Source of the DNA: a virus | Virus genome (UHGV): UHGV-0197770 | Reading direction: 5' to 3' (one strand) | DNA: 36,302 bases | Part shown: positions 112-33,731 of the stretch, one piece after another | How the letters are laid out: every line of letters begins with the position of its first letter | Numbering within the stretch: the stretch's first letter is position 1 | The notes under the pieces: model-generated | Databases searched by the model: none | What the model saw: only the letters and a program-made list of their open reading frames with translations | Told to the model about the DNA's origin: nothing | Translations under genes and position numbers: made by a program

Positions 112-852
112 ATGCGTAAAATCATTCATGTGGATATGGACTGCTTTTTCGCAGCGGTGGAGATGCGCGACAATCCCGCCCTGCGCGATATCCCTATTGC
201 TATTGGCGGCAGCCGCGAACGACGGGGGGTGATCAGCACCGCCAATTATCCCGCGCGTAAATTTGGCGTACGTAGCGCTATGCCGACAGGGATGGCGCTC
301 AAATTATGCCCGCATCTCACCTTGCTTCCAGGGCGCTTTGACGCCTACAAAGAAGCCTCAAATCATATCCGCGAAATTTTCTCGCGCTATACCTCGCGCA
401 TTGAACCGTTATCACTGGATGAAGCCTATCTCGATGTCACCGATAGCGTCCATTGCCACGGTTCTGCGACCCTCATCGCCCAGGAAATCCGCCAGACGAT
501 CTTCAACGAGCTGCAACTGACGGCGTCTGCGGGCGTGGCACCAGTAAAGTTTCTCGCCAAAATCGCCTCCGACATGAATAAACCCAACGGCCAGTTTGTG
601 ATTACGCCGGCAGAAGTTCCGACATTTTTACAAACCTTACCGCTGGCAAAAATTCCCGGCGTCGGCAAAGTCTCGGCGGCAAAACTGGAAGCGATGGGGC
701 TGCGGACCTGCGGTGATGTGCAAAAGTGTGATCTGGTGATGCTGCTTAAACGCTTTGGCAAATTTGGCCGCATTTTGTGGGAGCGTAGTCAGGGCATTGA
801 CGAACGCGACGTTAACAGCGAAAGGTTGCGAAAATCCGTTGATCAGACATGA
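112..852 (+). CDS. dinB: DNA polymerase IV (DinB), 3-prime truncated: about 243 host codons fused to 3 phage-derived codons and a stop
   Basis: Translation [26 protein letters not shown]... matches E. coli DinB (351 aa from memory) up to ...RLRKSV, then diverges (DQT-stop) where phage DNA starts. Confidence 0.9.
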
Positions 853-1871: not shown

Positions 1872-1905
1872 AAAAAAAGCACGGTAAGGGGTCTACCGTG
1901 CTTTT
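1872..1905 (-). terminator. Rho-independent terminator ending the leftward early operon (bidirectional hairpin)
   Basis: Stem AGCACGGTA / TACCGTGCT (1878-1886 / 1894-1902), 7-nt loop, flanked by A7 on plus strand (U7 on minus) and TTT on plus. Confidence 0.6.
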
Positions 1906-1947: not shown

Positions 1948-2346
1948 TTATCTGGATTTGTTAACGTCTTTCGTCTCCTCTGGCAGATCTTCATCAAACA
2001 ACCTGCCCTGCATCCGATCCAGTTCTTCTTTTCTGACCCGCTTAACCACGCTGTAGACCCACTGAAGCGAAACACCAAACTTGCGGGCCAGTTCGTGGTG
2101 GTTGCGTCCGTTAAACTCCCTGAAGATTTCCCGGTCGCGCTGACTGACCTTCCATACCATGCCCATCGGGAAATAAACGTTTTGCCCGCCCCAGACCTGC
2201 ATCATTCGGTTCGCGACGGCCTGACCAATCTGGTCGGCAATTGCGGGCTCAATATCAATAATCTCGCGAACGGTCTCAGAGGTATGCTGTGCCAGCTCCA
2301 CCAGGAGTTCCGGCCCTTTACTTCGAAACTGATTCAGGTCGCTCAT
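1948..2346 (-). CDS. Mor/C-family transcriptional activator of middle/late genes
   Basis: 132 aa with C-terminal HTH ELARKFGVSLQWVYSVVKR typical of Mu Mor/C; last gene of early operon as in Mu; GGGAG RBS. Confidence 0.7.
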   Translation of the reverse strand: MSDLNQFRSKGPELLVELAQHTSETVREIIDIEPAIADQIGQAVANRMMQVWGGQNVYFPMGMVWKVSQRDREIFREFNGRNHHELARKFGVSLQWVYSVVKRVRKEELDRMQGRLFDEDLPEETKDVNKSR

Positions 2347-2767
2347 GTTTTACTCCCGCAGCTCTGTGCTGCCACTTCTTCAGTTTCTCAATAACACTGC
2401 TTGCCTGTTCAGTATTGAGCCAGCGCAGGGCGCTGATGCCCGTTTCCCGCTTGATCCACCGCGCTAATGCATTTTCTGAACGGTCACGAACAATGCCGGC
2501 AGCAGCCATTTCAAGCCATAGCGCACGAATTTTCCTGGACTGCGGATGGTTATCCAGCGGTAAACCGGAGCTGGCTTTTCTGGCTGGTTTAACGCGAAAG
2601 CCTTTCTTTTTCATGGATTCCAGCACGCAGTTTAGTTGTGTGGTATCCATTCCTTTGGTTGAGGCTTTACCGGTCAGCCCCTGTAACATCTGGCGGTAGG
2701 TGTCTTCATCCATACCCAGTTCATTACGGGCAATATGGATAAGCTGTATCAGGCGTTTTTTCTGCAT
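2318..2767 (-). CDS. GemA-like protein (Mu gp16 family, DUF1018)
   Basis: 149 aa; N-terminal RLIQLIHIARNELGMDEDTYRQML resembles Mu GemA; sits immediately upstream of Mor as in Mu; AGGAG RBS. Confidence 0.55.
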   Translation of the reverse strand: MQKKRLIQLIHIARNELGMDEDTYRQMLQGLTGKASTKGMDTTQLNCVLESMKKKGFRVKPARKASSGLPLDNHPQSRKIRALWLEMAAAGIVRDRSENALARWIKRETGISALRWLNTEQASSVIEKLKKWQHRAAGVKHERPESVSK

Positions 2768-5798: not shown

Positions 5799-6965
5799 TT
5801 AAACCCCTTTGACAACGTCAGCGTTGACCTGTGGAACCCCGATTTCAGCGGCCAGATTCATGGCGGCTATTACCAGGTTACTGACGGCCAGCGGATACAG
5901 CAGGCTGACCATATTTTTACGATGACTTCCCGGATTGCTCAGGCGGGCACGTATGGCATCCACTGCGCTGGCGTCCATAATGTCCGTCAGTTGTTTACCG
6001 GCCCGTTGCAGTTTGAACGTCAGAAACTCTTCAAGGTTATTGTCCAGAGGCAGAAGTTCGACCACCTCACAGCGCTGAACGACTTCACGGACTTCCATAT
6101 TGCGTTCAGACAGTTTTGTCGCCAGTTCCGGCTGGCCAATCAGCACGATGGACAGCAGTTTTTTGAAACCGGACTCCAGCTCAAAAAAGCGTTTGAGGTG
6201 TTTCAGTGTCGGAATGGGCAGACTGTGGGCCTCCTCAATCACCAGAACGTGGCTGAACCCCGCCTGGCTGCTGTCTTTCAGGACGCGATGCAACTGGCGA
6301 AAGCGGGCGTCCTGACTGCGTCTGATGCTTTCCAGTGGTGCGATGGTACTGATAATGGCTTCGGCAATCGCTGCTGCCTTCAGGGTTTTCCCTTTCACAT
6401 CGTTGTCTTCCATAGCGATGATGTATGGCTCGATAACAATTACCGGCGCATTCTCGCGGTTGATACGTTCAGTCAGGTCGCGGCGCAGCGTGGATTTACC
6501 CGCACCGGACTCACCGATGACGGCCATAAACCCACCATGACGGGCTGTCTGGTACAACGCCTCACGCACGTAGCGAATATCCGGGGTGGTGAACACATCA
6601 TCAGAACCCTGCATGGCTTCGTCGGCGAATGGGTCACGGAAAAGACCAAACGCTTTTTTGGTTGCTGGAAATAACACCTGTTTTTTGAGTAACATATTCT
6701 CTTCCTCACTGAGGCTCGTTTTATCTGTGGTACCCGCTGTACGGGGCGTGGCCGCGCCCTGTACAGCATCAAAACTCTTCGTTGTATCAATCCCCTGACT
6801 TTCCAGCCAGGACGCAAGACGCCGGCGCACTTCTCCGGGGCGGGTGCGGGGCCACGCGTTATGATTCACAATCTGGGCCAGCGTGGCCTCAGAAACATCG
6901 ACAGCTCTCGCCACCACCGCCTGTGAGATACGGGCCTCTTTCAGTTGCTGCTTCAGTACCAGCAT
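5799..6965 (-). CDS. Transposition ATPase (MuB-like, AAA/TniB-type)
   Basis: Walker A GESGAGKST; N-terminal HTH; start at MLVLKQQ chosen because GAGGAGG lies 5 nt upstream; immediately follows transposase. Confidence 0.75.
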   Translation of the reverse strand: MLVLKQQLKEARISQAVVARAVDVSEATLAQIVNHNAWPRTRPGEVRRRLASWLESQGIDTTKSFDAVQGAATPRTAGTTDKTSLSEEENMLLKKQVLFPATKKAFGLFRDPFADEAMQGSDDVFTTPDIRYVREALYQTARHGGFMAVIGESGAGKSTLRRDLTERINRENAPVIVIEPYIIAMEDNDVKGKTLKAAAIAEAIISTIAPLESIRRSQDARFRQLHRVLKDSSQAGFSHVLVIEEAHSLPIPTLKHLKRFFELESGFKKLLSIVLIGQPELATKLSERNMEVREVVQRCEVVELLPLDNNLEEFLTFKLQRAGKQLTDIMDASAVDAIRARLSNPGSHRKNMVSLLYPLAVSNLVIAAMNLAAEIGVPQVNADVVKGV

Positions 6966-6975
6966 GTTTTCCTCC

Positions 6976-8745
6976 TCAGTTGCCGTTAACAATGCTGATA
7001 ACACTGCTGCGTGCCGGCGTGGTCAGCGTGGCCATGACTTCATCCAGTGCAGCTTCCGGTACGCCGTCCGGGTACTGTGCCGTTAACTGGCGGTAATGTT
7101 CCGGCGTCCAGGTAAGGCCGTCGGCGCTGAACTTATCGCGCAGGGCTTTCGCGGCCTCCACATGAGTCATGGGACGTTGTTCAGTGCGCGGCCCGCGTAC
7201 GTCAGAGGCCTGACCGCGCTTCGGCATATAGGCCGGAAGTGTGGCGTCATCAATATGTTTATACGGGTCAAGCCGCCCGCCGAACGGCAGCGCCTTCGCC
7301 TTGCGTGCGGCAGCTGCATCTGCGGCGTTGTCTGTACCGGTGACCAGCTCTTCGGTTTCTTTTGCCGCCATCTGCGCCGGGGTTTCCGGCAGGGCTTTGT
7401 AACTTTCGCCAAATACCGCCGCGCCTTCAGCAAAGCCAAACTCGTTCTTTCTGACCTCTTCGACCAGGAAGAACGTCTCGTGGCCGTCCTCACCGGTCAG
7501 AACCACCTGTGCCACATCGCTGCGCCACGGGTTACGGGTAATCATCAGTTTTTCACCGACCAGTACGCCCGGTACCGTTGATACGTCAAATTCAGTGCCC
7601 CGGAACGAGACACGAAGTTTTGGCGTGACTTTGCGGAGTTCTGGTGCCGCCACAGCCAGTTCACGACATACCTCAACGGAAGGCGCTTTTTTCAGCTGCT
7701 CAGCAGTAATCTTCAGCCAGATATCCGTGCGGGTTTTACCGTGGCGGCTGTGAACAGCCGTGGCGTTAAAGTGGCTGCGCCATTTCGCGGCCAGCGCGTT
7801 GAGTTCTTCCAGACTGTGAACCGGCCGGAACTTCAGACCCGGCTCCAGCTTGCGTTCGATAATGTCCCGCGCCTTTTCCACCTGTCCGGTGGCGCGGGCG
7901 TTATGCGGCTTGTGCGCTATCAGGTCAATGCCCAGTGAGCGGCACATGTTTTTCGTCATACCCGCGGTGTTTGCCGAGCCGGGGTCGAGATAGAGTATTT
8001 TTGGCACGCCGTGCAGCACGTCTGCGCCGCCACGCTCCTGCATGGCGTTGATAAGCACAGAACACAGGTTCTCACCGGATTCCGCACCCGTCACATACTC
8101 AACGTAAATCCAGCCGCTGGCATGGTCGGTAATCTCATAACTCCACACGCGGTCACTGGCGATACGGGCAAGGTTAGCGGGCTTGTTCTTGTAGAATTTC
8201 GCGCTGTCCATCACCTGCAGCCCTTTGTGTCCATTGCTCAGGTAGTAAAGCGTGCAGAGCGAGGCATCAATCTGCCAGACGTGATTGGGATGCAGACTGG
8301 CCACTTCGGTATGCGGCGCAGGGGCATCCAGTTGTTCCGGGTGCAGGCCATAGTTACGCAGGGCACGGCTGATGGCATCTTCGGACAACGGGAAAAACTC
8401 ACCGGTGGTTTCATCTGTTCTGCCTGCGGAGATAAAGCCGTTAGCCCGCAGGGTTTCCACTGCATCTGCGATGGAATAGAGACGCTTACCGTTCTTGCGG
8501 GTGGCCTCACGCAGTGTGGCAGATATCAGCGCGGCTTCGTCGCGGGTCAGGGCGCTGCGCCCGGCATCGGCGCGTTTTTTGCGTTTATCAGTCACAGAGA
8601 CCTCCTTCAGCCTGCGCAGCAGAGTGGCGCGGGACATGCCAAGTTCAGCACAGGCAGCGTCGTATATTGCACCGCGTTTACCATGCCCCGCGTCACGTGC
8701 CGCGCGGGCGACATAAACCAGTCGTTCAGTCAGGGCAGCATTCAT
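6976..8745 (-). CDS. DDE transposase (Mu A-like, integrase-core superfamily)
   Basis: 589 aa; N-terminal HTH (LGMSRATLLRRLKE); integrase-core-like segments HVWQIDAS and LYLDPGSANTAG; paired with B-like ATPase. Confidence 0.75.
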   Translation of the reverse strand: MNAALTERLVYVARAARDAGHGKRGAIYDAACAELGMSRATLLRRLKEVSVTDKRKKRADAGRSALTRDEAALISATLREATRKNGKRLYSIADAVETLRANGFISAGRTDETTGEFFPLSEDAISRALRNYGLHPEQLDAPAPHTEVASLHPNHVWQIDASLCTLYYLSNGHKGLQVMDSAKFYKNKPANLARIASDRVWSYEITDHASGWIYVEYVTGAESGENLCSVLINAMQERGGADVLHGVPKILYLDPGSANTAGMTKNMCRSLGIDLIAHKPHNARATGQVEKARDIIERKLEPGLKFRPVHSLEELNALAAKWRSHFNATAVHSRHGKTRTDIWLKITAEQLKKAPSVEVCRELAVAAPELRKVTPKLRVSFRGTEFDVSTVPGVLVGEKLMITRNPWRSDVAQVVLTGEDGHETFFLVEEVRKNEFGFAEGAAVFGESYKALPETPAQMAAKETEELVTGTDNAADAAAARKAKALPFGGRLDPYKHIDDATLPAYMPKRGQASDVRGPRTEQRPMTHVEAAKALRDKFSADGLTWTPEHYRQLTAQYPDGVPEAALDEVMATLTTPARSSVISIVNGN

Positions 8746-8748
8746 TGG

Positions 8749-9660
8749 TTATGCCTCCAGCCCGTTAATCTGTGGCGTCGGCTCAGTCAGCCATGAAGGC
8801 GCGACATCGCCTGTTGGCTCGTCCGGCAGGTCAAATGTGGAGCGCAGGCTACGCGCTGTGCTTTCCAGTTGACAGACCAGACCTGCCATGAAGTCTCTGG
8901 GGGTATCAATCATGTTTTCAGCACAATATGCGCACAGTGTCTCAAAAGCGCTGGACAGTCGAACGGCGATGGCAGATTCCGCCTCAACCGCTAATGCTGT
9001 CACTTCCGCCCGCAGCTTCTTAACCTCCTCATCAGGCTCAGGCAGCTGAATACGGGATTTCTTTTCCAGTCTGGTAGAGAGAGAATCAATTTTTTCATTT
9101 TTATCGGCGAGTACGCGCTGTTGTGCTGCGTTGGTTTCGCGCGCTTCGCGCAGGGCCTGGCGAAGTTCGCGTACTGACATGCGATCAACGTCGTCAAGCG
9201 TCAGGCCGGCAACTGTGCCGCCGTCGGCCAGTTCGGCAAGCTCTTCGTCGTCTTCTGTCATTAATTCGAAAAGTTTGGCTTTTCCCAAATGTGCCAACGT
9301 TGGCACATTTGGTTTCAGCGCCGGGGATAAGTATTTTGTCGATGCTTGCATCATTCTCACAGATGTCCGGTATGCCAGCCCCAACTCACTTTCAAGAATC
9401 TTTATAAACTCCCCGTGTGGTTCATTTTCCTTAAGGATTATCAGCCGCTTACCTGCCTCCAGCATGGCCTCAGCGCTCTGTGCCATATAAAAGCGTGCCT
9501 CATGGACAACACGATCGCGCTCATAAGGCAGACCATCGCCGAACTGTTGCATGATTTCCATGCGATGCTGTGTCATGGCGTTTAGACTGACATTGAGATC
9601 ATCCGACAGCGGTACCTCGACGTTCAGTTCAGTGCTAACCGGTGATTTGGTGCGTCCCAT
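8749..9660 (-). CDS. Hypothetical early protein (303 aa), acidic coiled-coil rich
   Basis: AAGGAG RBS 6 nt upstream; between regulators and transposase; no family recognised. Confidence 0.5.
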   Translation of the reverse strand: MGRTKSPVSTELNVEVPLSDDLNVSLNAMTQHRMEIMQQFGDGLPYERDRVVHEARFYMAQSAEAMLEAGKRLIILKENEPHGEFIKILESELGLAYRTSVRMMQASTKYLSPALKPNVPTLAHLGKAKLFELMTEDDEELAELADGGTVAGLTLDDVDRMSVRELRQALREARETNAAQQRVLADKNEKIDSLSTRLEKKSRIQLPEPDEEVKKLRAEVTALAVEAESAIAVRLSSAFETLCAYCAENMIDTPRDFMAGLVCQLESTARSLRSTFDLPDEPTGDVAPSWLTEPTPQINGLEA

Positions 9661-9979: not shown

Positions 9980-10200
9980 GACGCCTCCTTAAGGATACCG
10001 GGGGTAACTTCTTTACCTATTGCAACCGATAGATCTCGCAAAATCCGATAAGTCAAACGACCGCGAGGTAGTTCACTTTTACCAGCCCAGCGACTGACTG
10101 CCTGGGTGACTGTTCGTGGTTCATAGCCCGCGTTAAGCGCGAACTGGCGCAAGCTACTGCCTCGTTCAACCAGCCGTGCCCGAACTTGTTGTTTGTTCAT
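9976..10200 (-). CDS. Ner-like DNA-binding protein (first gene of early operon)
   Basis: 74 aa from ATG (GTG 6 nt upstream also possible); HTH LRQFALNAGYEPRTVTQAVSR resembles the Mu Ner family; divergent from repressor. Confidence 0.55.
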   Translation of the reverse strand: MNKQQVRARLVERGSSLRQFALNAGYEPRTVTQAVSRWAGKSELPRGRLTYRILRDLSVAIGKEVTPGILKEAS

Positions 10201-10288
10201 ATGCACCGTGTTCCTGTTAGGTTATGATGTACTCTATTGGGTCTATTGTACACACCCAAATGAGTGTGTCAAATTGAGATATGTTCAA
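10201..10288. promoter_or_regulatory. Divergent promoter/operator region between early operon and repressor gene
   Basis: Inverted repeats TGTAC-N15-GTACA (10228-10252, containing tandem TCTATTG half-sites) and CACAC-N8-GTGTG (10251-10268). Confidence 0.5.
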
Positions 10289-10696
10289 ATGAGTACAAAA
10301 GAGAGATTGCGTGAAGTGATGGATGCTAATGGCATGACAATAAAGGCATTATCTGACTTATCAAAAATTCCATATCGCTCACTTCAAAACTATTTGCGTG
10401 GAGAGAGAGAACCAAACGCAGAGGCTCTTGTTGCGCTAAGTACCCATTTGGGTGTATCAATCGATTGGCTACTTACCGGTAAAGAACATATTCCATCTAA
10501 AGAAATTGTTGCTGTACCAACACAACATCAATTCAGCCCGTCAGACCTTAAAATGCTTGAACTTCTAAACCAGTTAGATCCTGAGGTTCGGCGAGATCTC
10601 ATGCGAGGCGCTGAAGAAAAACAGCGTGTGATTGAGATGGAAAAACAACTGAAGGAATTATCCGCAACGATTGAGCGGTTAAAAAATGTGGGTTAA
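10289..10696 (+). CDS. XRE-family HTH repressor (phage c-repressor candidate) with C-terminal coiled coil
   Basis: ATG at 10289 preferred over upstream TTG; HTH LSDLSKIPYRSLQNYLRGEREPNAEALVALSTHLGVSIDWLLTGK; divergent from early operon. Confidence 0.65.
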   Translation: MSTKERLREVMDANGMTIKALSDLSKIPYRSLQNYLRGEREPNAEALVALSTHLGVSIDWLLTGKEHIPSKEIVAVPTQHQFSPSDLKMLELLNQLDPEVRRDLMRGAEEKQRVIEMEKQLKELSATIERLKNVG

Positions 10697-10766: not shown

Positions 10767-11774
10767 ATGTCTGAGCAGACCATTGAAGTTAAACACGTTG
10801 TAGTTCACATTTTAGACAAACAACAAAATGGAGACGCTTCTGAGAGATTGAGTCCTGAAGAAGGTCTAGTTACTGAAGCCTCTCAGCGCCTTATAAACGA
10901 TATTTGTGCAAAATATGCAGGACGCACAGGTAAAGGTTATGGCTATTTTGAAGGCGATACGGATAACTATCCTATGGAACGAATGGCTGGGGACTTTCTC
11001 GAAGGTGTTGATGATTTCTACCAAAGTTCCTGCCGAATGATGCATCACCTGACGGAACGTTCTCAGCGAGAAAACATGGCTACTGGTGGTTATGTTCTTT
11101 TTGCAAATATCGTGATAGGACACAATGAACACCTGTTGATAGCTATTGTAAGCGCTACCATTGGGTCCACTGTCACAGATGATTTTAACATCCAAGATAG
11201 TACCTATCTTGATATTGCTAAGCTGCGTATGGCTGGGCGCATTGACTTAACCGCGTGGGAAAGTGGCGCAGAGCGCTATATCAGTTTTCTTAAGGGGCAA
11301 GGTAATGTTTCAAACTATTTTAAACAGTTCCTAGGCTGTAATGATGTCTTAATCGCCAAACGAGAGTCTGAAAAGTTACGTGACGTTTTAAAAGCATTTG
11401 CGGCAGAGAAAGGACTTGACGGCGCTGAAAAAGATGCATTTCTTAAGAGTGCGTTTGAACACTTACATGCACTAAGTAAGGCTGGTGAACCACTTAGTCT
11501 TGAAACCCTTGTTAATGCCATTTGGCCCCAGGCTCCCGAGGAGTTATCTGGTAAACTTGCTGCTGAAGAGTTGGAGTTATCGGATGGCTTCGTTCCTGAT
11601 GGTCGAGTCATTCGGGCTCTGGTATCTTTTAAAGGCAAGTCTAAATATTGGGAACTTAAGTTTGACCGGGAAGGGAAAACTGAAGGCTATATTGATTATG
11701 ATCCGGAAACAAATATTATCACCCTACGTAATGTACCTGAAGAATTTAGGGAAATGTGGATGACTGAGGTTTAA
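10767..11774 (+). CDS. NdpA/YejK-family nucleoid-associated-protein homologue (phage-borne paralogue); candidate sensor of a two-gene defence cassette
   Basis: 335 aa (same length as E. coli YejK); blocks GGYVLFANIV..HLLIAIV, YLDIAKLRMAGRIDLTAWESG..ERYISFLKG...FLG and C-terminal NIITLRNVPEEFRE align to my recollection of YejK; AAGGTGGA RBS; AT-rich. Confidence 0.6.
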   Translation: MSEQTIEVKHVVVHILDKQQNGDASERLSPEEGLVTEASQRLINDICAKYAGRTGKGYGYFEGDTDNYPMERMAGDFLEGVDDFYQSSCRMMHHLTERSQRENMATGGYVLFANIVIGHNEHLLIAIVSATIGSTVTDDFNIQDSTYLDIAKLRMAGRIDLTAWESGAERYISFLKGQGNVSNYFKQFLGCNDVLIAKRESEKLRDVLKAFAAEKGLDGAEKDAFLKSAFEHLHALSKAGEPLSLETLVNAIWPQAPEELSGKLAAEELELSDGFVPDGRVIRALVSFKGKSKYWELKFDREGKTEGYIDYDPETNIITLRNVPEEFREMWMTEV

Positions 11775-11776
11775 TC

Positions 11777-12982
11777 GTGGCGATTTCATTTGAGATGCTG
11801 ACAGCTCTGTATCGTCGTATGGAATTCCAAGAGGGGTTTCGTGTCGGTTCGCTGTTGCTCTTAGATCAGTCCGATTGTGATCTGGTTGATACTTTGCTTG
11901 ATGATCCTCGTGAATATGGTCTTTCTATTGATACAGGCACTATCGCTCCAGGTAACACGATCATCCTACGTGTGACGTCACCACGGAGTGGACTGGGACT
12001 TGTGTTTTCCACCCATGAAAAATTGCTAAATGCTCCAAAGCATCAGTGCCTTGAGCCAGCTAATTACTTCATCCTAGAAACAAAATTTCGTAATGATGAT
12101 GAAGATATCCCCGTTTTCATCAGCAACTACCGGAAGATTCTCGAGTTCGTTAACCTGCTAAAAGAGGCCGCGGCCTACTTTGATAACTCAACTTGTCAGT
12201 TAGTTTTTCTGAAAAAAGAAGTTATCAAGCTATTACCGCACTTCGCTGCAGAAAATGTACAAAATTTGCAAAGGGAGTATCTTGATAACCTTATAGCTTG
12301 TTTCAATGATGATACCCATAAGGATCAGAAGCTAGATATTCTGATTGAAAGTATTCAAGCAGTTAGTGATGGAATTGATTCACCTCTAGTATTCGCTTAT
12401 TTACTGGACAATATTCAGCGTCTGCATGAAAAGTTTCTGAAAGGGTATCGTATCTACTCTTCTGGATTCTCTTATGACAAAGTAATGGATCAACTGCGTG
12501 CTGCAAAAGTCGAAGAAATGGGTAAAATCCACAAAGCGTTTTCAGATATCCAGAACCATATACTTGGCATTCCTGTTGCCTCTGTTATCGTAGCTACCCA
12601 ATTCAAAGTGGCTACGAAATGGTCAGGCCAAGGGATAACAAACACAATAATTCTTCTGGGATGCATTTTTGCTGCAACGTTAATCTGGCTGGCACTTTCG
12701 AACCAGATGCAATCTATAAAGGCCTTAGGCGAAGAAATTGAATACAAAGAAAAACAGATTAATAAGGAATATTCCTTCATTAAAGATGACGTGGCTGGTG
12801 TATTTAGCAGTATTTCTGCGCGACTAGACACGCAGAAACGTACGTTCTGGATTATACGTGGTGTTCTAGTTATGGGAATTATTACCGCTATCACTGTTTA
12901 TTTTTGGTACACAAAACCAGCCCTTGACTTCATGCAGTACTTGATTCACTGCATGAAGTCTTACTATTCGGTCAAAAGTTGA
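11777..12982 (+). CDS. Protein with ~270-aa soluble N-terminal domain and two C-terminal TM helices; candidate membrane effector
   Basis: GTG start 2 nt after upstream stop with GAGG RBS (coupled); hydrophobic helices ITNTIILLGCIFAATLIWLAL and FWIIRGVLVMGIITAITVYFWY; no family recognised. Confidence 0.55.
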   Translation: MAISFEMLTALYRRMEFQEGFRVGSLLLLDQSDCDLVDTLLDDPREYGLSIDTGTIAPGNTIILRVTSPRSGLGLVFSTHEKLLNAPKHQCLEPANYFILETKFRNDDEDIPVFISNYRKILEFVNLLKEAAAYFDNSTCQLVFLKKEVIKLLPHFAAENVQNLQREYLDNLIACFNDDTHKDQKLDILIESIQAVSDGIDSPLVFAYLLDNIQRLHEKFLKGYRIYSSGFSYDKVMDQLRAAKVEEMGKIHKAFSDIQNHILGIPVASVIVATQFKVATKWSGQGITNTIILLGCIFAATLIWLALSNQMQSIKALGEEIEYKEKQINKEYSFIKDDVAGVFSSISARLDTQKRTFWIIRGVLVMGIITAITVYFWYTKPALDFMQYLIHCMKSYYSVKS

Positions 12983-13742
12983 GGATAATGAGTTCCTTCT
13001 TGCGACTGGATTTGCCAGTGATCTTGAGGTTGTAGCTGATATCAACCGACTGAATATTTAGACCGTTGAATGCCTGCCGCATTTCCGGGATATCGTTCAC
13101 CGATATAATCATCTTCCCTTTGATCCTGCGTGCTAAATCTGCCATATGATCATAATTTTCTAGTCCGAACTCCACACCATAACCTTCCGTTCCCCAGTAT
13201 GGAGGGTCACAGTAGAACAACGTATGCGGGCGATCATATCGTTCTATGCACTGTTGCCAGTCCATGTGTTCTATGACCGTTCTGGAAAGCCGCAGGTGTG
13301 CCGCTGACAGTTCTTCTTCAATACGCAGCAGGTTGAAGCGTGGCGGGGATATGGTGGAGGTACCAAAGCTGTGCTCCGCCACCTTGCCCCCAAACGCCTG
13401 CTTCTGAAGGTAGTAGAACCGTGCTGCACGCTGGATATCCGTCAGTGTTTCTTCCGGGGTGATCTGCAGCCATTTGTAGATCTGCCGGCTGACCAGCGCC
13501 CATTTGAACTGGCGTACAAATTCTTCCAGATGATGTTTTACCACCCGATACAGGTTCACCAGCTCACCGTTGATATCATTAATGACTTCGATCTTGCCGG
13601 GTACCTTAAGAAAATAGAGCGCTGCTGCCCCACAAAACGGCTCCACATAACATTCATGCGCCGGAAACAGCGGCAGGATGTGTTTTGCAAGGCGGCGTTT
13701 GCCACCAATCCATGGAACGATGGGTAATGTCTGCATTTTCAT
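12972..13742 (-). CDS. Dam-family N6-adenine DNA methyltransferase (orphan)
   Basis: WIGGKRRL, EPFCGAAALYF and DPPY motifs parallel E. coli Dam; no adjacent restriction endonuclease; 3-prime end overlaps the convergent upstream gene by 11 nt. Confidence 0.8.
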   Translation of the reverse strand: MKMQTLPIVPWIGGKRRLAKHILPLFPAHECYVEPFCGAAALYFLKVPGKIEVINDINGELVNLYRVVKHHLEEFVRQFKWALVSRQIYKWLQITPEETLTDIQRAARFYYLQKQAFGGKVAEHSFGTSTISPPRFNLLRIEEELSAAHLRLSRTVIEHMDWQQCIERYDRPHTLFYCDPPYWGTEGYGVEFGLENYDHMADLARRIKGKMIISVNDIPEMRQAFNGLNIQSVDISYNLKITGKSSRKKELIILNF

Positions 13743-13924
13743 AATCTGTAAGCCTTTTACAATTATAAAAAATATGGCAGGCTAGTCTGGTCTCGCGAGA
13801 CTGACTGAACCTTGGTCGGCTCACAGCGCATTCCTGTGGGGCGATGGCCAGCCCGGTGTTCGGGTACCGGGCTGGTCGTTCTTTCAAAGCCATCATGCAG
13901 TGCACGTTTACATCTTCACTATTA

Positions 13925-13945
13925 ACGCTGTTTAAAATCCGTATC
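13925..13945 (+). promoter_or_regulatory. Candidate late promoter (copy 1 of a shared TTTAA(A/T)ATC motif) upstream of lysis/head operon
   Basis: TTTAAAATCCGTATCCCG about 50 nt upstream of the first late gene; related motif recurs at 21124, 27041 and 33341. Confidence 0.4.
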
Positions 13946-13989
13946 CCGCCACATTTGTGATGCTGTCTCCACCAAACGAGGAGACACAC

Positions 13990-16902: not shown

Positions 16903-18215
16903 CAGCAGCCATTCAGCTGTATCCCTACCAGCAGGCGTGGTTTCTGGATCGTGCCCGTTTCAAGATTGGCATGTTTGCCCGCCAGACGGGCAAGACGTTC
17001 ACCACCACGCTGGAACTGGTTGATGACTGTTTTGAAACAGAGGCATCAGGGGGACGCACTCGCTGGGTGATCCTATCGCGTGGGGAGCGTCAGGCAAAAG
17101 AAGCCATGGTGGAGGGGGTGAAAAAACACTGCAGCGCCTACCGGATGGCGGCCCGTGAGGTGGAAAGTTATTACCGTGCTGAAAGCGGCGAACGCTACAC
17201 CATGCTTGAGGTGGAGTTACCCGGTGGCTCCCGTATCACGGCCCTGCCGGCAAATCCCGACACGGCACGTGGGTTTGCGGCTAACGTCTTTCTGGATGAG
17301 TTCGCCTTCCATGCCGACAGTCGCAAAATCTGGACCGCCCTGTTTCCGGTCATTTCCAACGGCTACAGACTGCGTGTGACATCGACGCCGAACGGCAAGG
17401 GAAACAAGTTTTATGAACTGATGACCAGCAACGCCCTTGAAAATGTCTGGTCACGTCACATCGTGGATATTTACCGTGCCGTGCGCGACGGCCTTCCGCG
17501 TGACATTGCACAGATGCGACAGGCGCTCAACGATGATGACGCCTGGGCACAGGAGTTTGAACTGAAGTGGCTGGATGAGGCATCGGCCTGGCTGACGTTT
17601 GAACTGATTGACGGCGTGGAGCACGATGCTGCCGGACTGCCGGTGCACTATACGGGTGGCCCCTGCTTTGTGGGGGTGGATATTGCTGTCCGTAATGACC
17701 TGTTTGTGATCTGGGTGCTTGAACAGGTGGGGGATGTCTACTGGACCCGGGAAATCATCACCCGTAAACGGGCCACCTTTGCTGAGCAGGATGCTTTGCT
17801 GGATGACGTATTTTTCCGTTATCGCGTGCTGCGCTGCTGTATGGATCAGACAGGAATGGGGGAAAAGCCTGTGGAAGATGCTCAGGAGCGCCACGGCAGG
17901 AGTCGTGTGGAGGGGGTGATATTTAACAGCCCGAACAAGCTCACCCTCGCGACCCGTGGCAGGGAGATGTTTGAGGACCGCCGCCTGCGTATTCCGGCGG
18001 GAGATGTGGTACTGCGCAGTGATCTGCATAAACTCCGTAAGATCACCGGACCTACCGGAGCGCCTCGCTTTGTGGCGGAAAGTGATGCAGCAGGTCACGC
18101 CGACCGTACATGGGCCTGTTTTCTGGCTATTAACGCCACTGACGGACCGTCAGGGCCGGTGGTGGCGCGTTCGCGCCGCCGCCGTGAAGCCGCCCGCATG
18201 CTGGAGGGATTCTGA
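16899..18215 (+). CDS. Terminase large subunit (Mu gp28-like)
   Basis: 438 aa; Walker A-like FARQTGKT; position before portal. Confidence 0.75.
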   Translation: MTAAIQLYPYQQAWFLDRARFKIGMFARQTGKTFTTTLELVDDCFETEASGGRTRWVILSRGERQAKEAMVEGVKKHCSAYRMAAREVESYYRAESGERYTMLEVELPGGSRITALPANPDTARGFAANVFLDEFAFHADSRKIWTALFPVISNGYRLRVTSTPNGKGNKFYELMTSNALENVWSRHIVDIYRAVRDGLPRDIAQMRQALNDDDAWAQEFELKWLDEASAWLTFELIDGVEHDAAGLPVHYTGGPCFVGVDIAVRNDLFVIWVLEQVGDVYWTREIITRKRATFAEQDALLDDVFFRYRVLRCCMDQTGMGEKPVEDAQERHGRSRVEGVIFNSPNKLTLATRGREMFEDRRLRIPAGDVVLRSDLHKLRKITGPTGAPRFVAESDAAGHADRTWACFLAINATDGPSGPVVARSRRRREAARMLEGF

Positions 18216-19711: not shown

Positions 19712-20513
19712 ACTGGCGTACTGCATGACGCTTCCCCCGAAGCGGGCAGTCAGTTACCTGAAGTCCAAAGGGTATCAGATTACCTGGGACTGGGAAGAAA
19801 TGTGGCAGGAAGCCCATGCCCGCGCCTTTACCGTCGCTAAAGTGACCCGCCTGGATATTCTGGAAGATATTCGCGGGGCACTGCAGCAGGCTGTCGATGA
19901 AGGAAAAACCGATCGCTGGTTCCGGCAGGAGCTGGAGCCGGTGCTGAAGCGTAAGGGATGGTGGGGACCACGTGACACGACTGACCCGGTAACGGGTGAG
20001 CCGGTCACCATTCAGCAGGGCAGCCCGTGGCGGCTCGACACCATCTTTCGCACCAATATGTCCGTACTCTACAGCGCCGGTCGTTGGGCGGAGCAGATGG
20101 AAAACGTCGACGACAGGCCGTACTGGATGTATACCGGCATCAACGACAGCCATACCCGCAGGAGCCATCTGGCGCTGCATGGTCTGGTGCTGCGCTGGGA
20201 TGACCCGTTCTGGCAGGCATTTTACCCGCCGAACGGCTGGCGCTGCCGCTGTAGTGTGATTGCCCTGAGTGCGGCGGATGTACGTGCCCGTGGCCTGAAG
20301 GTTATCAGCTCCGGCTCTGCCATGGGCCAGGAACTGAAACTGGTCTCAGAGAAAACCGGCGAAATGCGGAACGTGGCCACCTTTAATACCGGCACCACGA
20401 AGGTGACCACCGACGTCGGCTGGTCTTATGCACCGGGGGCAGCATACCGTCCCGACCTGGCCCGCTATCAGGGTACGCTTCAGCCACTGGCACAACAGGA
20501 ACTGAGAGGATAA
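19692..20513 (+). CDS. Head morphogenesis protein (Mu F / gp30-like)
   Basis: ATG at 19692 preferred over upstream TTG; position after portal. Confidence 0.6.
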   Translation: MSVTTAELAYCMTLPPKRAVSYLKSKGYQITWDWEEMWQEAHARAFTVAKVTRLDILEDIRGALQQAVDEGKTDRWFRQELEPVLKRKGWWGPRDTTDPVTGEPVTIQQGSPWRLDTIFRTNMSVLYSAGRWAEQMENVDDRPYWMYTGINDSHTRRSHLALHGLVLRWDDPFWQAFYPPNGWRCRCSVIALSAADVRARGLKVISSGSAMGQELKLVSEKTGEMRNVATFNTGTTKVTTDVGWSYAPGAAYRPDLARYQGTLQPLAQQELRG

Positions 20514-21060: not shown

Positions 21061-21119
21061 ATAACCGCTTCCGGTTCACCGCATTGCTTTCCCTGTCCTT
21101 CTCCCCTGATGTTTTCTAA

Positions 21120-21140
21120 AGCAGATTAAAATCGCCGGGC
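21120..21140 (+). promoter_or_regulatory. Candidate late promoter (copy 2) upstream of protease/scaffold gene
   Basis: GATTAAAATCGCCGGG about 55 nt upstream of ATG 21189, preceded by CTTCTCCC; 214-bp intergenic gap. Confidence 0.4.
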
Positions 21141-21188
21141 CTGCATTTCTCACAAACTGTCTCCGACAACATAACGCGGGACAGCAAA

Positions 21189-23621: not shown

Positions 23622-24068
23622 ATGTACTGCACCCTGGAGGATTTGCTTGCGCAGGTGCCGGAGCGGACGCTTATCGAACTCACCAGTGAAGAGATGGACT
23701 TCGACTCGCCTGCAACAGTGAATACCCGTGTGGTGGACAGCTGTATCCGCTATGCCGACGAGCTGATTGATGCCCATCTGCGCGGACGCTATATCCTGCC
23801 ACTGGCAGAGATACCGACTGTTCTGCGGGACATTGCCATCACGCTGGTCCGTTACCGGCTCTACGCCCGCCGCCCGGAAGGTGACCTCCCGGATACGGTG
23901 AAGGATGACCACAAAGAAGCGCTGCGGCAACTCAGGGAGTTACGTGATAACAGGCTCACGCTGGGGCTGCCGTCCACTCAGAAAGATGTGCCTGAGCCTG
24001 GCGAGTTTCGTGTACGCAGTCGCCCGGCCACTTTCGGCGGTCGTGACGGTTTACTGGAGAAATACTGA
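23622..24068 (+). CDS. Head-tail joining protein (Mu gp36 / DUF1320-like)
   Basis: Start at MYCTLEDLL 1 nt after upstream stop; longer upstream ORF overlaps previous gene and is discounted. Confidence 0.5.
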   Translation: MYCTLEDLLAQVPERTLIELTSEEMDFDSPATVNTRVVDSCIRYADELIDAHLRGRYILPLAEIPTVLRDIAITLVRYRLYARRPEGDLPDTVKDDHKEALRQLRELRDNRLTLGLPSTQKDVPEPGEFRVRSRPATFGGRDGLLEKY

Positions 24069-26723: not shown

Positions 26724-27005
26724 GTGAGTGTTGAACTGACGGATAAAGGAGGACGATGTGCGGCACTGGGCATGTCAAATGGTACGTGGTTTACCCTCCT
26801 TGATATTCCGGGGGTGGAAACCCTTTTTAATACCCGTAAAACCAATGACCCGATTGACTGCACACGTTCAAAGGCCCGCAAACTGGCGGATTTGATTGAA
26901 GCATGGGAGCCTCCCGACCACTGGTTCTCCGGCATCGGCAAATCTGAGGGAAAGACGCTTCTCATCGCTTTCCTGCGTAACTGCAAGGGGTTTCGCACTT
27001 GCTGA
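26724..27005 (+). CDS. Hypothetical tail-module protein (93 aa, GTG start)
   Basis: Open frame directly after tube gene; no family recognised. Confidence 0.35.
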   Translation: MSVELTDKGGRCAALGMSNGTWFTLLDIPGVETLFNTRKTNDPIDCTRSKARKLADLIEAWEPPDHWFSGIGKSEGKTLLIAFLRNCKGFRTC

Positions 27006-27011
27006 CATCAC

Positions 27012-27035
27012 AGGGGCTCCGGCCCCTTCTTCTTA
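27012..27035 (+). terminator. GC-rich hairpin with T-rich tail (candidate attenuator/terminator)
   Basis: AGGGGC-TCCG-GCCCCT stem-loop followed by TCTTCTT. Confidence 0.4.
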
Positions 27036-27075
27036 ATCTCCTTTAATATCCGTCACGCGCTTCTCCCGACATACT
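27031..27075 (+). promoter_or_regulatory. Candidate late promoter (copy 3) upstream of tail chaperone/tape-measure genes
   Basis: CTTCTTAATCTCCTTTAATATCCGTCACGCGCTTCTCCCGACATACTGCC shares CTTCTTAA / CCTTTAATATC / CGCTT / TCCCG / ATACTGCC blocks with 33331-33380. Confidence 0.45.
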
Positions 27076-27102
27076 GCCCTGAACTTACACAGGAGCACAA
27101 TC

Positions 27103-27438
27103 ATGTCACAGACCCCATCCGATACTTTTAAATTGTCTTATCCCTTCACCACTGCTGCAGGCACCAGAATTGAGCTGGTTGAACTGAAACGCCTGACGGT
27201 AAAAGACCTGAAGCAGGTGCGCAAAATCAGCAAAAACCCGGCAGACTGGGACGAACCGCTGATTGCCCGCAGTACTGGTCTTCTCCCGGAAGATCTCGAC
27301 AATATGGATCTGGCTGATTACCTGCAGTTACAGAAACGATTTCAGCTCATCACGGGGATGGGTGAGAGCAACCAGGGCGCTGACGCAGGCGCAGGGGCTG
27401 CTGGCGAGATGGTTCCGGTTTCAGCCGGGGGAGATTGA
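27103..27438 (+). CDS. Tail assembly chaperone
   Basis: 111 aa directly upstream of tape measure; motif IELVELKRLTVKDLKQV typical of tail chaperones; AGGAG RBS. Confidence 0.6.
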   Translation: MSQTPSDTFKLSYPFTTAAGTRIELVELKRLTVKDLKQVRKISKNPADWDEPLIARSTGLLPEDLDNMDLADYLQLQKRFQLITGMGESNQGADAGAGAAGEMVPVSAGGD

Positions 27439-33330: not shown

Positions 33331-33380
33331 TTCTTAAACGCCTTTAATATCGGCGCTTACTTCCCGGGGGCAATACTGCC
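33331..33380 (+). promoter_or_regulatory. Candidate late promoter (copy 4) upstream of baseplate genes
   Basis: CTTCTTAAACGCCTTTAATATCGGCGCTTACTTCCCGGGGGCAATACTGCC; same block structure as 27031-27075. Confidence 0.45.
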
Positions 33381-33383
33381 TCC

Positions 33384-33731
33384 ATGAAAACGACCTCAGT
33401 ATTCTGGCAACCAGCTCTGCAGGCTTCCGGCGAAATCGTCAGGGGGCTGGATGATATCCGGCAGTCCATCCAAATCATCCTGCGGACTCCCCGCGGCAGC
33501 GACCCGCATCGCCCGGAGTTCGGCAGCAATCTGCACCTTTATATCGACTGGCCTGTCGACCGGGCCATTCCGCATGTGGTTCGCGAATCCGTCGATGCCA
33601 TCCGGCGCTGGGAGCCCCGCTGCCAGCTTATGTCAGTTAAACCCGCCGTCGACGGCGAACATCTTACGCTCCGGGTGAGCTGGAAAGGCTCAGACGGACA
33701 GACCCGGACTCAGGAGCTGCTATGGCGCTGA
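33384..33731 (+). CDS. Baseplate protein (gpW / gp25-like)
   Basis: 115 aa; GSDPHRPEFGSNL motif region typical of GPW/gp25 family; position before J. Confidence 0.65.
   Translation: MKTTSVFWQPALQASGEIVRGLDDIRQSIQIILRTPRGSDPHRPEFGSNLHLYIDWPVDRAIPHVVRESVDAIRRWEPRCQLMSVKPAVDGEHLTLRVSWKGSDGQTRTQELLWR

Follow-up and report, generated by a model that had tools for sequence, protein, structure and literature searches.

What switches on the late genes of a Mu-like prophage that encodes only one activator of the Mor/C family? The question is raised by the 36,302-nucleotide (nt) virus genome UHGV-0197770, analysed here over its whole length and called the window. It holds a transposable Mu-like (BcepMu-like) prophage of Escherichia coli, in which all lysis, head and tail genes run rightward. 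An earlier note on this DNA had pointed to an element of roughly 50 base pairs (bp) repeated upstream of late transcription units, and had proposed four candidate late promoters dependent on a Mor/C-type protein. We find that the gene blocks for lysis, head, tail and baseplate each open with one such element (P1 to P4), and we put at roughly 0.85 the probability that they are activator-dependent late promoters served by the phage's Mor-like protein.

Four elements of common anatomy precede the late operons

All four elements lie on the plus strand, 49 to 73 nt upstream of the start codons of the first genes (holin, 13990; head protease/scaffold, 21189; tail assembly chaperone, 27103; gpW/gp25-like baseplate gene, 33384). 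Their common anatomy is (T/C)TAA-N6-TTAA(A/T)ATC, then 23 nt (24 at P4), then a -10-like hexamer nA(T/A)(A/G)CT (Table 1). No -35 element accompanies the hexamers at the four sites, the best match to TTGACA at spacers of 15-19 being two or three of six bases (two of six at P1), and a scan for consensus promoters made no call at any of them. This motif and its geometry, like the conservation, the single activator gene and the base pairing described below, were established by computation.

The ordered blocks that the earlier note had seen in both the chaperone and the gpW intergenic regions are present: CTTCTTAA at 27029 and 33330, CCTTTAATATC at 27040 and 33341, CGCTT at 27058 and 33354, TCCCG at 27064 and 33362, and ATACTGCC at 27071 and 33373. 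So are the shorter cores at 13931-13941 (TTTAAAATCCG) and 21126-21134 (TTAAAATCG), although these lie 59 and 63 nt from their start codons rather than about 50. CGCTT and TCCCG probably do not belong to the element. They fall within the spacer, at offsets that differ between the copies, and the corresponding positions carry near-zero information across relatives, for which reasons their sharing is probably due to chance.

Outside the four sites the motif is scarce. Exact TTAA-N6-TTAA occurs three times in 36 kilobases (kb), every time at one of the sites, and YTAA-N6-TTAAWATC with at most one mismatch matched only the four places, all on the plus strand; shuffled sequences gave a mean of 0.17 matches, with four matches in none of 100 shuffles. 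Because this pattern was derived from the sites themselves and written after they had been seen, we built an independent matrix from relatives alone, to which neither the window nor the three relatives nearest to it contributed. The matrix returned the four sites as the only high-scoring ones, the lowest being P4 at 22.3 bits, because of its 24-nt gap to the hexamer, and the next best place in the window at 8.4 bits. That fifth place, TTAA-AGTCCT-TTCA at 1924-1937 on the minus strand, lies directly past the activator gene, where Mu has its middle promoter Pm. We rejected it as a conserved promoter: no proper -10 stands at 23-24 nt, a terminator follows, and the phages PhiKM, KP12 and BcepMu lack the site at this place.

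P3 directly follows an intrinsic terminator that closes the sheath/tube transcription unit, and the T-run of this terminator overlaps the left half-site of P3. GC-rich stems with T-runs occur at the equivalent position in relatives.

The elements are conserved before homologous genes in other species

To follow the motif through relatives we used 75 loci of about 20 kb (1.46 megabases in all) from other species, fetched with the head-tail adaptor (23622-24068) as anchor. They come from Enterobacterales, Burkholderiales/Neisseriales and Pasteurellaceae, at 35-85% protein identity. The element recurs in these loci before homologous genes. Of 158 exact TTAA-N6-TTAA matches, 137 (87%) lie at most 130 nt upstream of the four anchor-gene homologues, a zone that makes up 2% of the relatives' sequence. 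Where the region before the holin was readable, it held at least seven of the eight core bases every time (35 of 35 loci); the same was true before the protease/scaffold gene in 70 of 77 loci, before the tail chaperone in 63 of 74 and before gpW in 60 of 63.

Aligning 162 unique promoter sequences on the operator, without gaps and with no selection for the hexamer positions, limited the conservation to the half-sites, their flanks and the hexamer, the spacer columns carrying about 0-0.3 bits. Column +38, the second base of the hexamer (A2), is A in 159 of the 162 sequences, and column +42, its sixth base (T6), is T in 157. A2 and T6 are the two most important positions of the sigma-70 -10 hexamer. 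The other hexamer bases vary by host: cATACT in enterics, CACGAT or GACAAT in Burkholderiales, and TAAACT or TATCAT in Pasteurellaceae. A GTAA left half-site, as in Mu Pm, also occurs among the relatives.

Two further features of these alignments may be recorded here. In Pasteurellaceae relatives TTTAAA-like words recur every 10-11 bp beside the operator (locus L081, 16723-16767 and 22241-22286; locus L074, 7427-7450); at the protease promoter the runs lie upstream of the operator, and at the tail-chaperone promoter they span it and continue downstream. Given that Mor and C bind as tetramers, such runs might be extra activator sites, or they might be bent DNA. Many Betaproteobacterial -10 hexamers (loci L039-L069, protease and gpW promoters) read GATCAT, which contains GATC, and several phages with promoters of this set of relatives, that of the window included, encode an adenine methyltransferase.

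The operators resemble the Mor site of Mu rather than its C sites

In Mu's annotated genome A-GTAA-AGCCGG-TTAA-T marks the middle promoter Pm, which depends on Mor, and TATCCT follows after 23 nt. We set the +1 of Pm at Mu coordinate 9224, since all six published permanganate-sensitive positions then fall on A of the top strand; this puts the centre of GTAA-N6-TTAA at -43.5, in agreement with the published value. The dyad element of Pm occupies -51 to -36. P1, P3 and P4 (TTAA left half) and P2 (CTAA) each match seven of the eight core bases of Pm, and with a start 7-8 nt past the hexamer, a position taken from the Pm geometry, the window operators would be centred at -42.5 to -43.5. The protease promoter of BcepMu (GTAAAGCCGATTAA) and Pm (GTAAAGCCGGTTAA) are identical but for a single base. 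The likeness to Pm extends from the operator sequence to the 23 nt separating it from a weak -10, the absence of a -35 and the centre near -43.5, as well as to a terminator that abuts or overlaps the operator (here at P3) and to a promoter core that pairs with the start region of the first gene. Mu, however, has one Pm, which drives the middle operon including C, whereas here four copies are placed directly at late operons. The activators, moreover, are only 31-32% identical, with recognition helices VSLQWVY here and VTFNTVY in Mu Mor.

The four C-dependent late promoters of Mu carry TTAT-N6-ATAA (clearest at Pmom), 24 nt and a -10. The published C operator consensus, TTAT-N5-6-ATAA (PMC12867686), agrees with the Mu genome sequence, and so does the published operator centre of -43.5. 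The earlier note had drawn a parallel to these promoters, and in part it holds: there are four in each phage, each with a -10, no -35 and a bipartite operator (24 nt before the -10 in Mu); P1 and P2 occupy the positions of Mu Plys and PI, before the lysis and the protease/scaffold genes; and P2 shares the hexamer CAAACT with PI. It fails for the other two sites, since Mu has nothing equivalent to P3 (tail chaperone) or P4 (gpW), its PP lying inside gene N and its Pmom serving a DNA-modification gene absent here. Nor are the operators of the C type, for their half-sites are (T/C)TAA and TTAA rather than TTAT and ATAA. By sequence type and geometry the window elements thus correspond to Mu's Mor operator, not to its C sites.

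A single activator gene and covarying recognition helices

The window has one Mor/C-family gene, as had been noted earlier: a single full-length Pfam match (PF08765, E 1.1e-43), with no second copy found by tblastn in the window using the window protein, Mu Mor or Mu C as query. One such match per genome is also the rule in BcepMu-type phages and a Pasteurella relative, against two in Mu-type phages. The full-length match covers the family architecture of dimerisation domain, GG..Y.P beta-strand linker and C-terminal helix-turn-helix, and an alignment of the protein with Mu Mor and C shows residues G54, Y58, P60, F78, G80, N82, L86, Y98 and Q113 as invariant. The early operon probably ends at an intrinsic terminator read from the sequence directly past the gene. 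RNA sequencing of Fc02, a B3-like phage with the same layout, places mor last in its leftward early operon (PMC9936078). Given a single activator gene and this placement of mor, the cascade would probably run in two steps, from early to late, without the middle step of Mu.

Residues 113-117 of the activator, QGRLF, align with QPDLF, the C-terminal clamp-binding motif of Mu C, and keep its Q, L and F; the aligned residues are QRDLF in BcepMu and QFDMF in the Pasteurella phage, and the general clamp consensus is QL[SD]LF. Late transcription coupled to replication has been reported for Mu, and because of QGRLF at the clamp-motif position such coupling is a possibility here too.

The recognition region of the window protein is S93-L-Q-W-V-Y-S99, and the phages with TTAA-N6-TTAA (the window's, KP12, BcepMu and Pasteurella AFS-2018a) share a turn and recognition helix VS(L/M)QW(V/I)Y. 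The residues of Mu C at the aligned positions make major-groove contacts according to mutational and cryo-electron-microscopy work. Two B3-like siphoviruses differ on both sides. Pseudomonas phage B3 has VTEDWIY with TTCG-N6-CGAA upstream of its holin, protease and tape-measure genes, and JBD25 has LTPSSIY with TT(C/A)G-N6-CCAA; Mu C, for comparison, has LSQPQIY with TTAT-N6-ATAA. A hexamer with A2 and T6 follows after 23-24 nt at two of the three B3 sites, the printed sequence of the third ending before the hexamer, and at all three JBD25 sites. That JBD25 lacks TTAA-N6-TTAA could be taken as counter-evidence, but we dismissed it as such, the phage having another half-site in identical geometry. 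To judge from these sequences, the operator half-sites of B3-like phages change together with the recognition helix of the activator.

The promoter core pairs with the translation start region of the first gene

The ribosome-binding region of the first gene has its complement in the conserved bases past the hexamer (ACTGCC or CTGTCTCC), and each of the four elements can form a stem (Table 1). RNA that includes the promoter core folds at P1 to P4 with -12.2, -10.7, -12.3 and -12.7 kcal/mol, as against -0.5, -5.9, -1.4 and 0 kcal/mol for RNA beginning at the predicted start. Shuffled cores were equally stable in 0-3% of cases overall (3% at P1, 0.4% at P2 and 0 of 500 at P3). Among 55 unique sequences from relatives, mean folding energies were -13.2 kcal/mol for read-through RNA, -2.1 for promoter-initiated RNA and -6.3 with a shuffled core, and the probability that the ribosome-binding site is unpaired was 0.27 on read-through and 0.66 on promoter-initiated RNA. 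The arms vary among clades yet stay complementary (GCCTCT/AGAGGC and ATTGCC/GGCAAT, both among the compensatory variants at P2; ATGTCC/GGACAT; CCTTCGCG/CGCGAAGG). Seven T follow the P3 stem in Pasteurellaceae and make it a terminator there.

The gpW promoters of all three clades, and in Betaproteobacteria those of holin and protease as well, have a hairpin around the -10 hexamer itself. Its perfect pairs number about 4-8 (clade means 4.3, 5.2 and 7.8), against 2 in shuffles and in the chaperone promoters, and at gpW its arms vary between clades in a compensatory manner. The types of mismatch in the hairpin (four G-T/T-G, three C-A, three other) do not separate action as RNA from action as DNA. 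The gpW/gp25-like gene has no ribosome-binding site, and its ATG stands 6-7 nt past the -10 hexamer in all three clades; its mRNA is predicted to be leaderless, with AUG as its first bases.

Mu has the same pairing. At Pm, Plys and PI we obtained -14.9, -13.9 and -14.7 kcal/mol with the core and -4.6, -1.5 and -1.5 kcal/mol from the predicted start, the +1 positions being set here by geometry, and for Pm also by the permanganate data; according to the literature these starts have been located experimentally. Pmom showed no such pairing. We found no description of pairing between promoter core and ribosome-binding site for Mu-like phages. A precedent exists in phage T4, where the genes e, soc, 49 and I-TevI have a late promoter inside the DNA for the 5' arm of an inhibitory hairpin that hides the ribosome-binding site or AUG, so that translation is poor from long transcripts begun upstream, whereas the arm is missing from late ones (PMC3014915); given the predicted starts, the arrangement here would be alike. 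It differs in that T4 late promoters use gp55/gp33 and a TATAAATA box rather than an activator with sigma-70, in that the effect has been demonstrated in T4 and is a prediction here, and in that the pairing recurs here at every late operon start, and in Mu. The transposase genes of IS10 and IS50 are likewise protected from transcription that enters from outside. There, as would be the case here, incoming transcripts carry a potentially harmful gene of the mobile element with its translation start hidden, although the protected gene is the transposase in the insertion sequences and the first gene of each late operon in the prophage. The same kind of protection is known for IS200 (PMC4513863).

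The pairing may insulate translation of the first gene from read-through transcripts, a proposal to which we give slightly less than even odds, and we are tentative to the same degree about its extension, namely that a translational insulator is built into the Mor/C-type promoters of transposable phages, Pm, Plys and PI of Mu among them. Three points weigh against this translational layer. A consensus fold of 19 P2 sequences by RNAalifold gave no structure, because the stems are in different registers in different clades, and per-sequence energies with shuffled-core controls were used in its place. Contiguous stems of at least 6 bp occur in only 36% of the sequences (3% in controls). Finally, blocking the first cistron alone is a weak rationale for P2 and P3.

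Alternative explanations

The -10 elements may have been misassigned. The starts would then lie further upstream, and the ACTG(C/T)C block and the stems would be 5'-leader structures in all late transcripts, serving stability or translational control by another factor, with TTAA-N6-TTAA still the activator site. That the stems take in the 3' part of the hexamer lends this some colour, in that RNA pairing could explain part of the hexamer's conservation. Yet A2 and T6 are kept in about 97-98% of the 162 sequences whatever the stem partner, the distance from the operator equals that in Mu Pm, whose +1 was derived from published permanganate data, Mu Plys and PI have the same geometry between operator and -10 together with the pairing, and no better -10/-35 pair was seen upstream; we therefore regard such a misassignment as improbable. 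A little less probable still is that the elements bind something other than the Mor-like protein, be it the prophage repressor, a Ner/Cro-like protein or a host nucleoid protein such as IHF or Fis. AT-rich half-sites in GC-rich DNA are indeed typical of nucleoid-protein targets. In B3 and JBD25, however, where the genome layout is shared, a different Mor recognition helix goes with different half-sites, and the sequence of the elements is nearly that of the experimentally footprinted Mor site of Mu. A repressor or Cro operator was rejected, as the immunity region (around 9.6-10.8 kb) contains no copy; an IHF site was rejected only on visual comparison with the consensus WATCAANNNNTTR, with no scan made.

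It is very improbable that the elements are remnants of repeats or mobile elements, or of a recent internal duplication, with no regulatory role. The extra blocks shared by P3 and P4 (CTTCTTAA, CGCTT and TCCCG) would fit such an origin, but only half-sites, flanks and hexamer are conserved and the spacer is free, so that the copies have no similarity over their whole length; they keep the same four gene-relative positions in hosts of three orders, and all are oriented alike relative to the downstream genes. Chance clustering of AT-rich words in intergenic DNA, to which one might be inclined because the first pattern was written after the sites had been seen, is hardly credible in view of the shuffles, of the more than 13 bits by which the independent matrix separates the four sites, and of the concentration of 87% of exact matches in 2% of the relatives' sequence.

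Late promoters activated by the Mor-like protein hence remain our preferred reading, which every sequence-level test supported, activation and start sites being predictions. It has weak points of its own. The start sites are extrapolated from Mu. The tail-chaperone site of BcepMu is degenerate (TTAA-N6-CTGA). The sequence counts exceed the number of independent events, because the relatives share ancestry. Lastly, the relation of helix to half-site is no simple code, since Mu Mor reads GTAA/TTAA with the different helix VTFNTVY, and the covariation comes from few lineages.

A proposed model for late gene expression

The following scheme, the likeliest by analogy with Mu Pm, has four inferred parts: that the Mor-like protein binds the sites, where transcription starts, that it is activated there, and what follows for translation. 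The Mor-family protein would probably be made from the end of the leftward early operon. Binding in two adjacent major grooves whose centre is near -43, it would contact the half-sites, stand in for the missing -35 contact and recruit host RNA polymerase, and transcription would start near 13971, 21165, 27082 and 33384. P1 would serve lysis and head assembly, P2 the genes from protease to tail tube, P3 those from chaperone to baseplate V, and P4 those from gpW to the tail fibres. Read-through RNA would fold so as to hide the ribosome-binding site or start codon of the first gene, whereas RNA initiated at the promoter would lack the 5' arm and be translatable; at P4 it would begin at the AUG. 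The first gene, and above all the holin, would then be translated only from activator-initiated transcripts and stay silent on RNA from the repressor operon, from an interrupted host gene (here the SOS-inducible dinB) or from the preceding late operon. Such insulation would matter most for the holin, because it lies downstream of the rightward repressor operon and, here, of dinB.

Mor/C-dependent promoters are well studied, and their presence in a Mu-like prophage is expected. We found no description of the late promoters of the BcepMu or B3 groups in the searchable literature, which does not take in the founding BcepMu, B3 and Mu genome papers, so that an earlier mention is possible. New are the consensus and the depth of its conservation, and so is its being closer to Pm than to the C sites. 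To these come the cascade with a single activator, the series of natural variants in specificity, the pairing of promoter core and ribosome-binding site, and the predicted leaderless gpW mRNA. The prophage type is common in E. coli and has relatives in many other Proteobacteria. The consensus TTAA-N6-TTAA, 23-24 nt, nA..CT allows late operons to be annotated in this phage group and predicts four start sites. The operator variants TTAA/TTAA, TTCG/CGAA, TTnG/CCAA and TTAT/ATAA, together with their recognition helices, form a ready set for the study of DNA reading by Mor/C proteins, a timely one now that structures of Mor/C complexes exist. If it works as proposed, the pairing accounts for the silence of lysis genes under read-through transcription in prophages that insert at random.

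Prophage setting and accompanying genes

From 13 kb onward the window shares 98% identity with Escherichia phage PhiKM (genus Bcepmuvirus) and 85% with Klebsiella phage KP12, and the 2-kb stretch around P3 (26000-28000) is matched in 641 of 5426 complete E. coli genomes. The prophage was placed inside dinB because of the truncated dinB gene near the left end of the window, whose remaining part lies on the strand of the late genes, so that SOS-induced dinB transcription would run into the prophage. Coordinates of these and the other features are collected in Table 1.

Table 1. Features of the window, with sites used for comparison in other phages; starts are predicted, and stems are potential RNA pairings
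Feature	Coordinates	Strand	Sequence or remark
dinB (DNA polymerase IV), truncated	112-852	+	remaining 5' part; same strand as late genes
Intrinsic terminator	1872..1901	-	GCACGGTA-GACCCCT-TACCGTGC and T7; directly past activator gene
Mor/C-family activator gene	1948..2346	-	only one in the window
GemA	2318-2767	-	early, leftward
ATPase partner of transposase	5799-7004	-	early, leftward
Transposase	6976-8745	-	early, leftward
Repressor	10193-10696	+	rightward
P1 operator	13922..13935	+	TTAA-CGCTGT-TTAA; before holin/lysis genes; matrix 36.3 bits
P1 -10-like hexamer	13959..13964	+	GATGCT, 23 nt past operator; start 13971-13972
P1 stem	13965..13985	+	GTCTCC (13965-13970, before predicted start) with GGAGAC (13980-13985, holin ribosome-binding site)
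P2 operator	21116..21129	+	CTAA-AGCAGA-TTAA; before head protease/scaffold (ATG 21189); matrix 33.2 bits
P2 -10-like hexamer	21153..21158	+	CAAACT; start 21165-21166
P2 stem	21157..21184	+	CTGTC.CCG (21157-21165) with GCGGGACAG (21176-21184, ribosome-binding region)
Intrinsic terminator	27012..27035	+	GGGGCC-TCCG-GGCCCC and T-rich run; -12.8 kcal/mol, z -2.3
P3 operator	27033..27046	+	TTAA-TCTCCT-TTAA; before tail assembly chaperone (ATG 27103); matrix 39.2 bits
P3 -10-like hexamer	27070..27075	+	CATACT; start 27082-27083
P3 stem	27068..27107	+	GACAT..GCCCTG (27068-27081) with CAGG.AGC.....ATGTC (27090-27107), over ribosome-binding site and start codon
P4 operator	33334..33347	+	TTAA-ACGCCT-TTAA; before gpW/gp25-like baseplate gene; matrix 22.3 bits
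P4 -10-like hexamer	33372-33377	+	AATACT; start at ATG 33384
P4 core hairpin	33366..33386	+	GGGGGCA-ATAC-TGCCTCC; hexamer AATACT in and around loop; 3' arm abuts ATG 33384
B3 late promoters, three (L084)	about 11565-11590, 19835-19860, 26815-26840		TTCG-N6-CGAA
JBD25 late promoters, three (L082)	13340, 21750, 27257		TT(C/A)G-N6-CCAA
Mu pairing regions of Pm, Plys and PI (L079)	9211-9257, 10444-10489, 18018-18065

Between the repressor and the lysis genes lies a variable cargo block (10767-13742) with a homologue of the 37-kDa nucleoid-associated protein (NA37, E 1e-80), a 401-residue protein without Pfam match and, on the opposite strand, a D12-class adenine methyltransferase; a related prophage (locus L001) has other genes in its place. 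Between the terminator that follows the activator gene and the dinB fragment, a gene at 1201-1836 on the minus strand encodes a predicted membrane protein of 211 residues without Pfam match, near the expected left end of the prophage.

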